From an uncultured Planctomycetales bacterium (GTDB lineage Bacteria; Planctomycetota; MHYJ01; JACPRB01), in contig CAZUJF010000004.1 in NCBI GenBank assembly GCA_964619955.1, positions 74,595 to 138,594 of the forward strand: a stretch of 64,000 bases of DNA, in the 5' to 3' direction. Of the stretch, positions 3,220 to 58,607 are shown piece by piece. Numbering within the stretch: position 1 is the first letter of the stretch; every line of letters starts with the position of its first letter. The notes under the pieces are model-generated. The model worked only from the letters and a program-made list of their open reading frames with translations. It made no database searches and was not told the origin of the DNA. Position numbers and translations under genes: made by a program.

Positions 3220-4550
3220 AGAATCTCGAGCGGACGACCCTCGGACATCCAGGCCTGCATGCCGCCGCGGACGCTCTTCACCTTCTCGTAGCCCTGCGCC
3301 TTGAGCAGCAGCATCGCGTTGAGCGAGCGCTTGCCCACGCCGCAGATCGTGACCACGGTCATCGAACGATCCGGCGGAATGCCCTGCACGGGGCCCGAGG
3401 ACAGCGTCGCCAGGGGGAGGTTCTTCGCCTCGGCGATGTGGGCGCCGTCGTATTCGCCCGGCGTCCGCACGTCCAGGAGCAGCGCGCCCGCGCGCACCAG
3501 CTTCTCGGCCTCGTCTCCGTCGATGACGTCCGCCGACGCCTGCGCGAACATCTGCACGGCGTTGAGCACGTCCGCGTTCGGGTTCGGCGCGGGGGCCGCG
3601 GGCTCCGGCGGAAACAGTTCGGGCAGGTGCTTGCGGAAGGACGACGAATACTTGAAGGCGTTGTCCGGGAAGATCACGACGCAGACCGCGCCCGGCTCGT
3701 CGGGGACGAGCTTGAACGCGCCGGCGAGGGCCATGCCGGAACTCGGCCCGGCGATGATGCTCTCCTCCTGGTTGAGGCGTTTGCAGAGCCGGTAGGCCTC
3801 CTCGTTGTCGATCTCCGTCAGGCCGTCGTATTCCGCCGGCGAGAAGAAGTCCGCGAGCTTGAGCTGTTTCAGGCTGCGGACGCCGGGGATGTCATGTCCT
3901 TCCTTGGGATGCACCCCGAAGATCTTCACGGCCTTGTTCTGCGACTTCAGGAAGCGGCCGGAGCCGGTGATCGTGCCGCAGGTTCCCAGTCCGGCGACGA
4001 AGTGCGTCACCTTGCCCTGCGTCTGCTTCCAGATCTCCGGGCCCGTCGTGCGGAAATGCGCGTCGGGATTCGCCGGGTTCTTGTACTGGTTGAGCTGATG
4101 CCAGCCCGGCTGCTTGCCCATCTCGGTCGCCTTGGACATGGCCCCCTCCGGGGCGCCGGGCAGCGGGCAGAGTTCGTCGTTGAGTTCCACCAGGTTCGCG
4201 CCGAAGACGCGCAGGCTGGAGCGCTTTTCCGCGGGGATCTTCAGCGAGAGCGTCGCGGTGAACTTGTACTGCTTCGCGTTGGAGATCATCGCGAGGCCCA
4301 TCCCGGTGTTCCCCGAGGTGGGCTCCACCAGGTTGCTGATCTTCACGCCCCGCTCCTCCGCATCGCGGACGAGGTTGGCGGCGACACGGTCCTTCACCGC
4401 GCCGAAGGGGTTGTACCACTCCAGCTTGGCGTAGACCTTCGTGTGTTTGAAGGGGCTGACGCGGTTGAGCCGCACGATGGGCGTGGGGTTCTCCGCGCTG
4501 GACAGCATGTCCATCATGGAGTCGTAGACGCGCAGGGAGAAGTCGGTCAT
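3216..4550 (-). CDS. Cysteine synthase (CysK/CysM-like PLP enzyme) fused to a C-terminal rhodanese domain
   Basis: GAVKDR PLP-lysine motif, TSGNTG substrate loop, Gly-rich 'GLGTCGTITG', then a C-terminal rhodanese module with active-site Cys 'ICGVGKRS'. Confidence 0.7.
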   Translation of the reverse strand: MTDFSLRVYDSMMDMLSSAENPTPIVRLNRVSPFKHTKVYAKLEWYNPFGAVKDRVAANLVRDAEERGVKISNLVEPTSGNTGMGLAMISNAKQYKFTATLSLKIPAEKRSSLRVFGANLVELNDELCPLPGAPEGAMSKATEMGKQPGWHQLNQYKNPANPDAHFRTTGPEIWKQTQGKVTHFVAGLGTCGTITGSGRFLKSQNKAVKIFGVHPKEGHDIPGVRSLKQLKLADFFSPAEYDGLTEIDNEEAYRLCKRLNQEESIIAGPSSGMALAGAFKLVPDEPGAVCVVIFPDNAFKYSSSFRKHLPELFPPEPAAPAPNPNADVLNAVQMFAQASADVIDGDEAEKLVRAGALLLDVRTPGEYDGAHIAEAKNLPLATLSSGPVQGIPPDRSMTVVTICGVGKRSLNAMLLLKAQGYEKVKSVRGGMQAWMSEGRPLEIL

Positions 4551-4577
4551 GGATCGGTTCCTATCAGTTCGAGCGCA

Positions 4578-5954
4578 TTATCCCGGCGGGCCCGCAGGGG
4601 CGCAAGGGCGTGCGAGCCGCCGCCACAGCGCGTAGACCGGGAAGCCGGCCAGCGCGATGAGCAGTCCCCAGACGGGGGACCAGTTGCCGTTCCCGATCTC
4701 CCCGCGCACGATGTGGTAGAGCCCGTACGCCGTCCCGAGGATGAAGACGAGCGGCGTCCAGGGGTACAGCGGCGTGCGGAAGGGCCGCGGCGTGTCCGGC
4801 TGCCGCGACCGGAGCACGAGCACCGCGCCCACGGCAAACAGCAGCGCGAACCATTCCACGACGACGAAGTAGGTCGTGAGGTCGTCGAAGAGCCGCCCTG
4901 GATTCTTCGGATCGCGCAGCAGGAACACGAGCAGCATGGCCACGCCGCCCTGCACCAGCAGCGCCGCGACGGGCGTCGCCCAGCGGGGATGCACCCGGCC
5001 GAGGATGCCGAACGTGAGGCCGTCCTTCGCCAGCGCGTACGCCACGCGCGGCTTGGCCAGGATGTTGCCGTTGAGCGCCCCGAAGACGCTCGCCATGATG
5101 CAGGCGCCCAGCGCGCCCGCCGCCCACTCCCCGAAAAGCCCCGCCATGATCCGCTGCGGCACCTGCTTCGTCTGCTGCATCTCCGCAAGCGGCATGCGGT
5201 AGAAATACGCGATGTTCGTGAGGACGTAGAGCCCGACGATGGTCAGCATGCCCGCTACGATGATGCGGGTCATCTTCTGTTCCGCCGCCTTCACCTCGCC
5301 GGCGATCATGCTCACGGCCACCCAGCCGTCGTAGGCCCAGATCACCGACGCGACGGCGCCGCCGATCGCCGCCCCCTGCAGAGTCCCGCCTCCGAGATTC
5401 GAAAAGCTCCCCTGTCCCGAGAGAAACGACGCCAGGATGATCGCGGCCAGGGCGGCGACCTTGATGATCGTGAAGACGCTCTGGATGGCCGAGCCGAAGC
5501 GGGCCCCGAGCAGATTGAGCCCCGTGAGAAGGGCGATCGTGCCCGCCGCGACGCCGGGAACGAGCCAGCCCTCGGGGGGGATCCCCAGGACTCCGAAGAG
5601 CAGCGTCGCGAAGAAGGTCGCGAGGGCCCCCACGGTCGCCGGCGTGGACACGAGCAGGTAGAGCCAGCCGAACACGAAGGCGGCGGCATCCCCATAGGCC
5701 GCGCGCAGGTAGACGTAGATCCCGCCCGTATGCGGCAGCATCGCGCTGAGCTCCGCCAGCGCCAGCGCGCCGCAGATGCTGATGAGGCCGAAGGCGACCC
5801 AGAGGCCCAGGATGAAGGCCGGATGCGGCGCCGCGTTCGCGAGGGTGTACGGCTTGGCGAAGATGCCGCTGCCGATGGTGATCCCGACGATGAGCGCCGT
5901 GCCGCCCCAGAAGCCGATGACGCGCTTCAGGTCGGGGTCGGCCGGGGCGCTCAT
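4578..5954 (-). CDS. APC-family amino-acid permease
   Basis: About 12 predicted TM segments and APC-family N-terminal motif 'GTALIVGITIGSGIF'. Confidence 0.75.
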   Translation of the reverse strand: MSAPADPDLKRVIGFWGGTALIVGITIGSGIFAKPYTLANAAPHPAFILGLWVAFGLISICGALALAELSAMLPHTGGIYVYLRAAYGDAAAFVFGWLYLLVSTPATVGALATFFATLLFGVLGIPPEGWLVPGVAAGTIALLTGLNLLGARFGSAIQSVFTIIKVAALAAIILASFLSGQGSFSNLGGGTLQGAAIGGAVASVIWAYDGWVAVSMIAGEVKAAEQKMTRIIVAGMLTIVGLYVLTNIAYFYRMPLAEMQQTKQVPQRIMAGLFGEWAAGALGACIMASVFGALNGNILAKPRVAYALAKDGLTFGILGRVHPRWATPVAALLVQGGVAMLLVFLLRDPKNPGRLFDDLTTYFVVVEWFALLFAVGAVLVLRSRQPDTPRPFRTPLYPWTPLVFILGTAYGLYHIVRGEIGNGNWSPVWGLLIALAGFPVYALWRRLARPCAPAGPPG

Positions 5955-13663: not shown

Positions 13664-15520
13664 ATGTCCTACCTGCTCGTCCGTGAGATGGGCCAGGAGC
13701 GCCCCCACCCGATCTCGGAGCCCGAAATCCTGATCGGACGCTCCCGGCAGAACCACGTGAAGCTGCTCACGGAGCAGGCCTCGCGGCAGCACTGCCGGCT
13801 GCTGAAGACCGACAAGACCTACCGTCTCATCGACGGCAATTCGTCGAACGGGACCTACGTGAACGGGCTGCGGGTCCAGGAGAAGGATCTCGCCGAGGGC
13901 GACTCCATCACCATCGGCAACGCGGCGATGATCTACCACGCGGGGGATCCCCCCGCCCGGCCGATCTTCAAGCTGCCGGACCCCGCGCAGTTCCAGTTCC
14001 CGCTGGACGACCGCAACGTCCGCATCCTGCTGCGGACCGTGGTCAATGCGGCGTCGACGCAGTCCCTGGACGCCTTCCTGCGCTCGGCGGTGGACGACGT
14101 CGTCGAGATCGCCCAGGCGGAGCGCGGCGTGCTCTACACGCGGGAGACGGGGGAACTCAAGCCGCTGGTCGCGCGGGACAGCGCCCGGAAGGACCTGCCC
14201 GAGCTGATCGGCATCAGCCGCTCCATCCCCCAGCAGGTCTGGGAGCACCGCAAGCCGATCTTTCTGCTGGACACCGAGAACCAGAAGGAGGCGCTGCAGT
14301 CCCAGAGCGTCTCGCTCTACCACCTGCGCACGATCATGTGCGCGCCGCTGCGGGTGGGCGAGAAGCTGCTGGGGGTGCTCTACGTCGACAGCCATGCGAA
14401 GCTTCGGGAGTACACGCAGACGGACCTGCAGATCTTCGAGGCGGTGGCGAACTACCTGGCCCTGACGATGGAGAACGTCCGGGCCGCGCAGGACCAGAAG
14501 CTGCAGGTCGACGCGCGCCGGAGCCTGCTGGAGCGGGAGAACGTCCTGCTGCGCTCGGCGCTGGAGCAGCGGAGCCACCTCATCGGCGAATGCGCGGCGA
14601 TGAAGTCGATTTACGAGAACGTGCGGAAGGTGGCGCCGACGGACGCGACGGTGCTGGTGCTGGGCGAAAGCGGCACGGGCAAGGAGGCGATCGCGCACGT
14701 CATCCACGACATTTCGCCGAGGTCCGCGAAGCCGTTCGTCGTGATCGACTGCGCGGCGATCCCGGAGACGCTGCTGGAGAGCGAGCTGTTCGGATACGAG
14801 AAGGGCGCGTTCACGGGGGCGGTGGCGCAGAAGCCGGGCAAGCTGGAACTGGCCCAGGGCGGGACGGTGTTTCTCGACGAGATGGGCGAACTGTCCCTGA
14901 ACCTGCAGGTCAAGCTCCTGCGGGCGCTGGAGCAGCGAACGATCACCCGGGTGGGCGGAGTGGAGCCGATCAGCATCGACATCCGGCTGGTGGCCGCCAC
15001 GAACCGGAACCTGGAGGATCTGGTCAAGCAGGGGAAGTTCCGCCAGGACCTCTACTTCAGGTTGAAGGTGGTGTCGGTGCTGCTGCCGCCGCTGCGGGAC
15101 CGCGGGGAGGACATCCTGCTGCTGGCGGACTATTTCCTGGCGGAGTCGAACAAGCTGAACGACCGCATGGTGAGGGGCTTCAGCGAAGGCGCCCGCACGG
15201 CGATGAAGGGGCACCGCTGGGAGGGGAACATCCGGGAGTTGAAACACCGGATCGAGCAGGCGGTGATCCTCTCGAGCAACCAGTATCTGTCGACCGAGGA
15301 TCTGAATCTCGCCTCGGTGGTGAGCACCTTCCGCTCACTCGAGACGGCGCGGGACTTCTTTGAAAAGACCTATCTGCTGCAGGCGCTCGCGCGGAACAAC
15401 TACAACGTCACCCACACGGCCCGGGAACTGGACCTCTCCCGCCAGCACCTGCAGAACCTGATCAAGAAGCACGGGATCACCCGGGTCATCGAAGGGGACG
15501 ACGTCCCCGCCACGCTATAA
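13664..15520 (+). CDS. Sigma-54-dependent transcriptional activator (bEBP) with N-terminal FHA and GAF domains and C-terminal Fis-type HTH
   Basis: FHA ('GRSRQNHVKL...NGTYVNG'), GAF, AAA+ with Walker A 'GESGTGKE', 'GAFTGA' sigma-54 contact loop, C-terminal HTH. The ATG at 13664 begins 'MSYLLVRE'. Confidence 0.85.
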   Translation: MSYLLVREMGQERPHPISEPEILIGRSRQNHVKLLTEQASRQHCRLLKTDKTYRLIDGNSSNGTYVNGLRVQEKDLAEGDSITIGNAAMIYHAGDPPARPIFKLPDPAQFQFPLDDRNVRILLRTVVNAASTQSLDAFLRSAVDDVVEIAQAERGVLYTRETGELKPLVARDSARKDLPELIGISRSIPQQVWEHRKPIFLLDTENQKEALQSQSVSLYHLRTIMCAPLRVGEKLLGVLYVDSHAKLREYTQTDLQIFEAVANYLALTMENVRAAQDQKLQVDARRSLLERENVLLRSALEQRSHLIGECAAMKSIYENVRKVAPTDATVLVLGESGTGKEAIAHVIHDISPRSAKPFVVIDCAAIPETLLESELFGYEKGAFTGAVAQKPGKLELAQGGTVFLDEMGELSLNLQVKLLRALEQRTITRVGGVEPISIDIRLVAATNRNLEDLVKQGKFRQDLYFRLKVVSVLLPPLRDRGEDILLLADYFLAESNKLNDRMVRGFSEGARTAMKGHRWEGNIRELKHRIEQAVILSSNQYLSTEDLNLASVVSTFRSLETARDFFEKTYLLQALARNNYNVTHTARELDLSRQHLQNLIKKHGITRVIEGDDVPATL

Positions 15521-15674: not shown

Positions 15675-15690
15675 TGGCATGCCCCTTGCT
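15675..15690 (+). promoter_or_regulatory. Sigma-54-type -24/-12 element (TGGCAT-N5-TTGCT)
   Basis: GG and GC dinucleotides at canonical spacing. Lies in the AT-richer intergenic region about 60 nt upstream of an intrinsic terminator. Confidence 0.35.
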
Positions 15691-15746
15691 CATAAGCACC
15701 CCATAGAAGAACGATAAGCCGTAAAAAATTAGATCCCGCTCCAACT

Positions 15747-15777
15747 GCCCCGACCCGTAGTCGGGGCGCTTTATTTT
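15747..15777 (+). terminator. Rho-independent terminator
   Basis: GCCCCGAC-ccgta-GTCGGGGC stem followed by gcTTTATTTT. Confidence 0.7.
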
Positions 15778-15891
15778 AAAGCAGTTTTCCCACCCGCCCC
15801 CTCGTAGACCCTGGCCGCCGGATTCCGCGCCATCCCCTCCTTGTGAGACCTAAACAGACACATCACTGTCCGATACTCCTTTCGAAGCGAT

Positions 15892-15926
15892 GTTACGTGG
15901 CGTAACACGACGTTACGCCACGTAAC
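15892..15926. promoter_or_regulatory. Paired 15-bp inverted repeat operator/UAS candidate (GTTACGTGGCGTAAC-acgac-GTTACGCCACGTAAC)
   Basis: Perfect reverse-complement 15-mers separated by 5 bp. Each is a GTTACG-N3-CGTAAC palindrome. The pair lies 45-80 bp upstream of the sigma-54 element in front of recA. Confidence 0.5.
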
Positions 15927-15969
15927 ACGGAGCGGCGGCGGGCGCGCGCCGCTCCCGGGGACGCGTGTG

Positions 15970-15985
15970 TGGCACGCTCTTTGCG
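15970..15985 (+). promoter_or_regulatory. Consensus sigma-54 promoter (TGGCAC-N5-TTGCG) upstream of recA
   Basis: Exact match to TGGCAC-N5-TTGC, about 65 nt upstream of the recA ATG. Confidence 0.55.
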
Positions 15986-15992
15986 CAATTGC

Positions 15993-16021
15993 TTGACGCT
16001 CAATTTTGAGGAGAGTCTAAT
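15993..16021 (+). promoter_or_regulatory. Sigma-70-like promoter for recA (TTGACG-N17-TCTAAT)
   Basis: -35 TTGACG, 17-bp spacer, -10 TCTAAT. RBS AAGGAGAG follows at 16038. Confidence 0.4.
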
Positions 16022-16049
16022 GAACGCCTTACTCGAAAAGGAGAGAGGT

Positions 16050-17186
<1,137 letters not shown>

Positions 17187-17491: not shown

Positions 17492-18652
17492 GTGAGATTG
17501 GCCCCCCTGCTGCTGCTGACCCTCGCCGCCCAGACGGAACCCGCCGAAACGATCCCCGTCTACGCCTGCATCAGCGTCCCTCCCCACGAAAGCACGCCGG
17601 CACGCTACCGGGAACTGGCCGAGGCCGGATTCACGACCAGCCTGACCGGCTTCGACAACCTGGGGCAGGCGCTCCAGGCGCTGGATGCCGCCCAGGGCAC
17701 GGGCGTGACGCTCTTCATCACCTGCCCCGAGCTGAAAAACTCCCCCGTCGAAACGGCCCGCACCCTCTCCAAACACCCGGCGCTCGCCGGATACCACCTG
17801 CAGGATGAACCCTCCGCAGCCGACTTCCCGGCCCTCGCCGCCTGGCAGGAGACCATCCAGGCGATCGATCCCAAGCACCCCTGCTACGTCAATCTGTTCC
17901 CGATTTACGCCAGCCCCAAACAACTCGGAACGAAGACGTACCAGGAGCATGTCGACCAGTTCGTCAAGATCGTCAGGCCCCCGCTGATCTCGTTCGACAA
18001 CTACCCCACCTCCACGGGGAAGCTGAATCCCGACCTCTACACGAACCTGGAGATCATCGCAACCGCCGCGCGGGGCGCATCCAAACCCTTTTGGGGCTTT
18101 TATCAGGTGATCCTCTGGGATGCGATGCCCCCGCGCACCCTCGCCCAGCTGCGGCTCGAGAGCTTCAGCAATCTCGCGTACGGCGCCCAAGGCCTCCAGG
18201 CCTTCACCTACTGGATGCCGGGCTTCCCGAAGCACCGTGACACCCCCATCGACGCCCAAGGCAAACGCACCCCCGTCTACGACCTGGTCAAACGCCTCAA
18301 CGGCGAAATCCGCGCCCTCTCGCGCGTCTTCAAGGACGCCCGGGTCCGGGACGTCGCCCACGCCGGGACGCCCCTCCCCCCCGGCACGCGCCCGTTCGTG
18401 GGCGTGCCCGGGCTGACCCGGCTGGACGTCGGCGCCGGCAGCGCCGTCGTCTCGCACCTGACGAAGGCCGGCCGGGACTACCTCGCCCTCGTCAACAAGG
18501 ACCTCCAGCACCCCCTGAAGCTGACGGCCGTCTTCGCCGACCCCCGGAAGATCCTGGAGATCCGGAGGGACGGCCGGGACCGACCTCCCGCCGGCGCCGA
18601 ATTCAGCATGGAGCCCGGGGACGTCCTGATCTTCCAGATCGCTTCGCCTTGA
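17492..18652 (+). CDS. Secreted TIM-barrel glycoside-hydrolase-like protein (function uncertain)
   Basis: Signal peptide 'MRLAPLLLLTLAA', GTG start preceded by RBS AGGAGA. The GH assignment rests only on fold-level resemblance. Confidence 0.35.
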   Translation: MRLAPLLLLTLAAQTEPAETIPVYACISVPPHESTPARYRELAEAGFTTSLTGFDNLGQALQALDAAQGTGVTLFITCPELKNSPVETARTLSKHPALAGYHLQDEPSAADFPALAAWQETIQAIDPKHPCYVNLFPIYASPKQLGTKTYQEHVDQFVKIVRPPLISFDNYPTSTGKLNPDLYTNLEIIATAARGASKPFWGFYQVILWDAMPPRTLAQLRLESFSNLAYGAQGLQAFTYWMPGFPKHRDTPIDAQGKRTPVYDLVKRLNGEIRALSRVFKDARVRDVAHAGTPLPPGTRPFVGVPGLTRLDVGAGSAVVSHLTKAGRDYLALVNKDLQHPLKLTAVFADPRKILEIRRDGRDRPPAGAEFSMEPGDVLIFQIASP

Positions 18653-58452: not shown

Positions 58453-58467
58453 GGGAGCTAAAGCAAG
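58453..58467 (-). promoter_or_regulatory. Consensus sigma-54 promoter (TGGCAC-N5-TTGC) for the flgF-to-flgL operon
   Basis: The plus strand reads GCAAGAGCCGTGCCA, the exact reverse complement of TGGCACGGCTCTTGC. It lies about 140 nt upstream of the flgF ATG. Confidence 0.65.
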
Positions 58468-58607
58468 AGCCGTGCCAATGCCTTTCCCCTAGGGAGAATC
58501 AATCGGGAGGCGTGAAGCGGAAGGAAGTTCCTTCCTGGCGACGGTCGATTCCTTCCGCCTGCGCGGATGCGGGTGGGACACCGTCCGTTAAGCGAACGAA
58601 CGCCGCG

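Follow-up and report, generated by a model that had tools for sequence, protein, structure and literature searches.

What drives recA in the 64-kb stretch of DNA from an uncultured Planctomycetota lineage analysed here (the window, in whose positions all coordinates are given)? recA is a textbook sigma-70/LexA-controlled gene, and an earlier note on this stretch had suggested that here its control is unusual and possibly dual. On balance, the sequence favours a recA that is read from a composite control region centred on a genuine sigma-54 promoter with an enhancer of its own. The elements of this region were compared across 12 orthologous recA loci from related Planctomycetota (the window, L001, L081, L086 and L161-L168), and their presence, conservation, spacing and joint retention are direct observations. 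The features that carry the argument are the following.

15892-15906, no strand: distal candidate recA enhancer palindrome, GTTACG-tgg-CGTAAC (GTTACGtggCGTAAC), centre about -96 from the inferred sigma-54 start
15912-15926, no strand: proximal candidate recA enhancer palindrome, GTTACG-cca-CGTAAC (GTTACGccaCGTAAC), centre about -76, with a counterpart in 8 loci
15970-15984, plus strand: recA sigma-54 -24/-12 element (TGGCACgctctTTGC), inferred start near 15996
16020-17186, plus strand: recA from the first start codon (ATG1), 388 aa, the NCBI-annotated form; Pfam RecA, E=1.8e-133

The sequence at 15970-15984 (TGGCACGctctTTGC) has its GG and GC exactly 10 nt apart, is oriented towards recA, lies 35 nt 5' of ATG1 and agrees with the sigma-54 consensus YTGGCACGrNNNTTGCW. 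The exact consensus reported in the earlier note is therefore present, and exact TGGCAC-N5-TTGC occurs only twice in the window (0.08 occurrences expected by chance). The second match (TGGCACggctcTTGC; 58463-58477, minus strand) lies 5' of flgF-flgG-flgH-flgI, a classical sigma-54 target, which suggests that this consensus is in use in the organism. About 50 bp upstream of the flg sigma-54 promoter lies the centre of a 17-bp palindrome (GGAAGGAACTTCCTTCC; 58463-58535, minus strand), probably the flagellar activator site.

Among the recA loci, TGGCA(C/T)G-N4-TTGC is intact in 8 of 12 (the window, L161, L163, L162, L001, L164, L167 and L165), and the element is gone in L081 and L166. Across the 7 alignable loci of these 8 module-bearing ones, identity is 0.95 in the -24 block and 1.00 in the -12 block, while it falls to 0.48 for the intervening N5 and to 0.40 for the GC-rich spacer upstream. 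Blocks that are kept while N5 and spacer drift leave the footprint expected for a sigma-54 promoter. The match could also be a look-alike, with recA read from sigma-70-type or other promoters only and the conserved sequences serving something else. To our knowledge recA is sigma-70-dependent in every bacterium studied, L081 and L166 manage without the sigma-54 element, and two other promoter-like elements described below, TTGACG-N17-TCTAAT and a block further upstream, are more widely conserved than it is. However, the extended consensus was retained in 8 loci while N5 and both flanks drifted, a chance match is rare at the frequency given above, and the element co-occurs with a correctly placed dyad enhancer. 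A non-functional look-alike is therefore very improbable.

The candidate dyad enhancer consists of the two 15-mers at 15892-15906 and 15912-15926, which form the perfectly reverse-complementary pair that the earlier note had described. Each is itself palindromic (6-3-6) with a free central triplet. The complementarity of one 15-mer to the other (16-nt arms) depends on the TGG and CCA triplets and is a feature of this genome alone. Against 0.00 expected, the window has two exact copies of the palindrome pattern, and with 0-1 mismatch GTTACG-N3-CGTAAC is found in 8 of the 12 loci, the same 8 that have the intact sigma-54 element. The central N3 varies freely among them (TGG, CCA, CAG, AAA, AAT, ATT). 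The possibility that the palindromes form an RNA hairpin or attenuator was rejected: the 16-bp helix exists only in this genome and the DNA motif is the conserved part. An Rfam search returned nothing at the gathering threshold, and one meaningless sub-threshold microRNA match fell on the palindromes.

The placement of the palindromes is constrained as well. In the 8 loci their centres fall at -74 to -84 and at -94 to -103 from the inferred start, and the distance from palindrome to -24/-12 element is limited to about 50 or about 59 bp. Second full palindromes lie 20 bp from the first, and extra half-sites are found about one helical turn off the core site, which in L162 and L164 means 10 bp upstream and in L001 and L167 means 8 bp downstream. 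Dyad sites, usually two or more, roughly 70-150 bp upstream of the start and on one helical face are the geometry of an upstream activating sequence for a bacterial enhancer-binding protein (bEBP), the activator type on which sigma-54 promoters depend. The earlier note had read the palindromes as such an enhancer from distance and symmetry, and their conservation at these positions agrees with it. In specificity scans of about 210 kb of related DNA the palindrome is absent elsewhere and found only before recA, and a set of 77 recA loci from other lineages, other Planctomycetota orders among them, contains no copy of it.

Between enhancer and promoter lies a further repeat.

15929-15955, no strand: GC-rich inverted repeat in the enhancer-promoter spacer (GGAGCGGCG...CGCCGCTCC), sequence unconserved in relatives

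The relatives have other GC-rich inverted repeats at this position, with no common sequence.

Gain and loss across the loci link the palindromes to the promoter. All 8 palindrome-bearing loci have an intact -24/-12 element. In L081, a near relative of L163, the palindromes were lost (14/40 positions identical) together with the -12 GC (now TCAC), while the flanking conserved blocks were kept (26/32 and 30/36 identical). L166 is without any of the elements. In L165 an insertion of about 460 nt (4507-4973) parts the palindromes and the -24/-12 element from the TTGACG element, and the distance between palindromes and promoter is unchanged. This insertion contains a stretch resembling a tRNA 3' end (GGTTCGAGTCTCC...CCA), in which ARAGORN calls no tRNA. 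Joint retention and joint loss, though from few independent events, support the view that the palindromes and the -24/-12 element act as one functional enhancer-promoter unit before recA.

Two further promoter-like elements flank this unit.

15993-16021, plus strand: sigma-70-like TTGACG-N17-TCTAAT, conserved in 10 of 12 loci
15850-15877, plus strand: promoter-like block CTAA-N15-TCCGATACT with a -10-like GATACT, 14 nt 5' of the first palindrome

The downstream element (identity 0.83) had been described as overlapping the sigma-54 element. It is present, but an 8-nt gap separates it from -24/-12, and what it overlaps is the predicted sigma-54 start. Its distance from the sigma-54 element varies across the loci (21, 23, 29, 33 and 482 nt), which makes it independent of that element, and the conserved TTGACG with its constant 17-nt spacing speaks for a -35/-10 pair. 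The second base of TCTAAT, a key position that is nearly always A in sigma-70 promoters, is C, and a simple sigma-70 consensus scan accordingly did not call the element. A TTGACG/TCTAAT promoter is probable, not certain. Given this second conserved promoter-like element downstream, the suggestion of unusual recA control is plausible, and the control may be dual or multiple.

The upstream block (consensus CTAA-N15-(G/T)(G/C)CGATACT) is present in 11 of 12 loci, always with the same internal spacing, and is the most widely conserved upstream feature; it also occurs in loci that are without palindromes or sigma-54 element. A scan of the window, flagellar region included, found no second copy. A tentative likeness is to the sigma-28 form, TAAA-N15-GCCGATAA. 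The block could be a third recA promoter, used by an alternative sigma factor of sigma-28 or extracytoplasmic function (ECF) type. Its end is separated from the first GTTACG half-site by 12-15 nt in 7 of 8 loci, a distance at which a palindrome-binding protein could also act as a roadblock to such a promoter.

This arrangement revives the other explanation offered in the earlier note, that of a LexA-type operator. The palindromes would then be the operator of a repressor (a LexA that recognises a new motif, or some other dimeric protein) that blocks the upstream block at 15850-15877, and the sigma-54 element would be independent of them. Dyad symmetry and tandem sites suit an operator, the sites lie at roughly +7 to +40 of the block's start in those 7 loci, and recA is classically a target of LexA. 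The TGTTAC-N5-GTAACA found here resembles the LexA motif of Verrucomicrobia, TGTTC-N4-GAACA. LexA motifs are also highly diverse, with 17 reported (PMC8565304), but those quoted in that work (TTAC-N3-GTAA, GGTT-N10-AACC, GTTC-N7-GTTC, CTAA-N5-TTAG and GGA-N5-TCC) differ from the recA palindrome in spacing or sequence. In addition, an operator leaves unexplained both the constrained distance from palindrome to -24/-12 and the joint loss of palindromes and -12 GC in L081, where the upstream block and the downstream element were kept. The palindromes end 67 bp upstream of the TTGACG hexamer, so they neither overlap nor directly follow that probable promoter, and the upstream block is only a putative promoter. 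No second copy of the motif was found in the 210 kb, and a tblastn search with E. coli LexA found no homologue in the window or 15 related loci; both are weak tests, covering a fraction of each genome. Position and the joint loss with the -12 block thus disfavour an operator, which is kept as an improbable minority alternative because of the upstream block.

The start of recA is double as well.

16008-16015, plus strand: Shine-Dalgarno sequence of ATG1 (GAGGAGAG), inside the TTGACG-TCTAAT spacer
16050, plus strand: alternative recA start ATG2, 378 aa, preceded by invariant AAGGAGAGAGG (16038-16048)

ATG1 (16020) is formed by the last bases of TTGACG-N17-TCTAAT itself. The distance from ATG1 to ATG2 differs among ten loci (30, 30, 33, 36, 30, 39, 45, 39, 30 and 33 nt), and in all 10 the interval is a multiple of 3 and free of stop codons. 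No nucleotide varies in AAGGAGAGAG, which precedes ATG2 and includes a rare AGA codon. The simplest reading is that these sequences provide two in-frame RecA starts, each with its own Shine-Dalgarno sequence, and suggests that the two are tied to different promoters. Directly 3' of recA lies an open reading frame (ORF; 17492-18652) of 386 aa without a Pfam match. The relatives carry different ORFs here, which are likewise unannotated and in some cases run in the opposite direction; nothing like recX was noticed.

Which protein would bind the recA palindromes? The earlier note had placed a sigma-54 activator immediately upstream of recA and implied that it controls the gene. The features of that neighbouring region are listed here.

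13664-15520, plus strand: sigma-54 activator (bEBP) gene with Pfam domains FHA, GAF, Sigma54_activat, AAA_lid_14 and HTH_8 (Fis-type), and a GAFTGA loop
15545-15560, no strand: distal small RNA (sRNA) enhancer palindrome (GCCAACtttaCTTGTC) of GCCAAC-N4-GTTGGC type, about 25 nt after the bEBP stop codon
15608-15623, no strand: proximal sRNA enhancer palindrome (GACAAGtgggATTGGC), with equivalents in L161, L081, L163 and L164
15675-15689, plus strand: sRNA sigma-54 -24/-12 element (TGGCATgccccTTGC); TGGCA[CT]-N5-TTGC kept in 9 loci
15701-15777, plus strand: candidate sigma-54-dependent sRNA of about 77 nt, with a variable 5' part and an invariant 22-nt core (UAGAUCCCGCUCCAACUGCCCC)

The activator with FHA and GAF domains is indeed encoded upstream, but it is not immediately adjacent: a sigma-54 promoter, the sRNA of about 77 nt and the terminator of that sRNA (together 15675-15777) separate it from recA. 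The bEBP gene forms a tight string with a HAD hydrolase gene upstream of it, and its ortholog family comprises about 95 proteins (down to about 47% identity), from Planctomycetota wherever the source is named. Across the loci the gene order is HAD hydrolase, bEBP, sRNA, 0-3 variable genes, recA and, further downstream, alaS; the variable genes encode a HEAT-repeat protein, S8, M10 or M43 peptidases and others. Seven loci (L001, L086, L162, L164, L165, L167 and L168) have 1-3 unrelated genes between the bEBP gene and recA. In L161 the space from the sRNA terminator to the recA control region is filled by long runs of short tandem repeats with CCCCTTC and CCTGGTC units (about 4700-4815). A metagenome scan with an alignment of the FHA-GAF N-terminal part of the bEBP was swamped by generic FHA matches and gave 6-7 usable loci. 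A contig scan of 185,579 species genomes returned a sole close RecA, that of L001, which is a Planctomycetota metagenome-assembled genome.

The unit next to the bEBP gene (enhancer, promoter, sRNA and terminator) recurs in 11 loci. The 210 kb contain 11 matches to the enhancer motif of this unit, G.CAA[GC]-N4-[GC]TTG.C, all at sRNA promoters, against 0.58 expected. The intrinsic terminator consists of a stem (15746-15768) and a U-run, and in an alignment of the 11 copies the stem shows compensatory changes from G:C to U:A. The sRNA matches no Rfam family. Pairing of the sRNA with the recA leader was considered by duplex folding against about 49 crude gene starts and dropped, as recA was not among the best. 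In L086 (8645-9156) the enhancer motif (GCCAACcatcCTTGTC), a sigma-54 promoter (TGGCACgtcacTTGC) and a terminator frame an ORF of about 113 aa just upstream of recA, whose product starts with a stretch like a signal peptide and ends in a tail rich in Lys and His (KKKHHKKK repeats).

The neighbouring FHA-GAF bEBP (13664-15520) may itself bind GTTACG-N3-CGTAAC and drive recA. It is encoded by the sole bEBP gene in the window and is for this reason kept as a minority candidate. In 11 of 12 loci the bEBP gene precedes recA in the same orientation, and nothing but the sRNA intervenes in L081, L161, L163 and the window itself. Its product retains the GAFTGA motif intact and carries an HTH_8 domain, and PexR provides the precedent of a GAF-domain bEBP encoded beside a stress gene under its control. 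On the other hand, G.CAA[GC]-N4-[GC]TTG.C serves the adjacent sRNA promoter in every sRNA-bearing locus. The two enhancer motifs differ in half-site as well as in spacing, each of them is found only at its own promoter, and no GTTACG site lies near the bEBP's own gene string. In L081 the bEBP gene and the sRNA persist although the recA module was lost. The differing motifs, the intervening genes in seven loci and the persistence in L081 weaken the inference from adjacency, and the pairing of this activator with the recA module implied in the earlier note becomes unlikely. The neighbouring bEBP more probably serves the adjacent sRNA, through a different palindrome, than recA.

Several points weigh against a sigma-54 promoter with its own enhancer at recA. 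All of the evidence is computational. The window, which is the only part of the genome covered, contains no second bEBP gene to which the role of recA activator could be assigned, and rpoN was not seen within its 64 kb. The enhancer is near the promoter and the GC-rich spacer is without a recognisable IHF site. The pairing of palindromes and promoter is not absolute, as L086 and L168 keep GG-N10-GC without GTTACG palindromes, and the co-occurrence in 8 of 8 loci represents few independent events because the loci are related. The palindromes sit where an operator of the upstream block would lie, and the C of TCTAAT makes the second promoter uncertain. Pointers to the use of sigma-54 within the window are the flg consensus match, the conserved sRNA promoter and the bEBP with GAFTGA.

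If the sigma-54 reading holds, transcription of recA might proceed as follows; sigma-54 dependence, the start sites, activator binding, the use of the two start codons and the inducing signal are inferred from sequence in this scheme. A bEBP dimer would bind each (T)GTTACG-N3-CGTAAC(A) site, one to two of which occupy the same helical face about 75-100 bp upstream, and adjacent sites would nucleate the active bEBP oligomer. The oligomer would loop across the GC-rich spacer of about 45 bp to the sigma-54 closed complex at 15970-15984. Opened with ATP, this complex would yield an inducible recA mRNA from near 15996 that carries the first Shine-Dalgarno sequence and ATG1. The constitutive-type TTGACG-N17-TCTAAT would produce a shorter mRNA whose 5' end lies beyond ATG1 and whose translation would begin at ATG2, behind the second Shine-Dalgarno sequence; longer transcripts, made from the sigma-54 promoter or from further upstream, would be translated from ATG1. 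The two promoters probably compete, as the -35 region of the TTGACG element would be hidden under the sigma-54 closed complex. Protein bound to the palindromes, at about +7 to +40 of the upstream block, could repress that block as a roadblock, if the block is a promoter.

A more specific scheme is a long shot. In it recA would be switched between holoenzymes: the basal promoter and ATG2 would give a short RecA, the sigma-54 promoter and ATG1 a form with a 10-15-residue extension, and the switch would be the neighbouring FHA-GAF activator, reading phospho-threonine from a Ser/Thr kinase. If true, such a kinase-driven switch would constitute a LexA-independent response to DNA damage or stress, loosely like eukaryotic FHA checkpoint signalling. 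More generally, sigma-54 control of recA, if true, would mean that a Planctomycetota lineage puts recombination and repair under an ATP-dependent, signal-gated activator, instead of or beside a cleavable repressor. The locus supplies testable elements for these ideas: two distinct enhancer motifs, a new candidate sigma-54-dependent sRNA and two in-frame RecA starts.

How does this region compare with known systems? Literature searches turned up no account of recA being transcribed from an enhancer-dependent sigma-54 promoter. The well-known LexA/SOS recA promoters and the dual recA promoters of mycobacteria share with it the recA target, an upstream palindrome and more than one promoter. Unlike in LexA/SOS recA, the palindromes here lie far upstream of the sigma-70-like element, co-vary with the sigma-54 promoter and match no quoted LexA motif. 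The bEBP-sRNA pair, and only this pair, is like LuxO-Qrr, in which a bEBP gene is likewise followed by a short sigma-54-dependent RNA with its own enhancers and an intrinsic terminator. There is no sequence or Rfam relation between the two, and the inputs are FHA and GAF domains here against a receiver domain in LuxO.

The recA region also resembles in layout the familiar glnAp1/glnAp2 promoters of enteric bacteria, where sigma-70 and sigma-54 promoters stand in tandem with palindromic sites for the activator NtrC (about 100-140 bp upstream). The half-sites are similarly laid out (TGCACC-N5-GGTGCA for NtrC, TGTTAC-N5-GTAACA here). The order of the promoters and the target differ, however; NtrC sites overlap and repress the sigma-70 promoter, and the NtrC signal is nitrogen status, received through a receiver domain.

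PexR of Myxococcus xanthus is a further parallel. This GAF-domain bEBP acts at ahpC/katB on tandem dyad repeats, from which it activates a sigma-54 promoter and represses a sigma-A promoter, and its dual role as repressor and activator at ahpC was shown experimentally (PMC12754779). The pexR gene adjoins its target, and homologues are reported beyond Myxococcota, including in Planctomycetota (PMC12754779). The likeness to ahpC is one of architecture: a housekeeping or stress gene with a sigma-A-type and a sigma-54 promoter and tandem dyads upstream. The targets differ (recA here, peroxide-defence genes for PexR), and so do the repeats, GTTACG-N3-CGTAAC here and CACCG-N6-CGGTG for PexR. The sigma-70-like element lies downstream of the sigma-54 promoter here, whereas in the PexR system the sigma-A promoter lies under the repeats, and the neighbouring bEBP has an extra FHA domain and a doubtful link to recA. 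The mechanism (sigma-54 with an enhancer) and the architecture of stacked promoters are already known; for recA as their target the literature searches gave no precedent. If true, the recA region would extend the PexR principle of a stress gene with stacked sigma-A and sigma-54 promoters and one set of dyad repeats.

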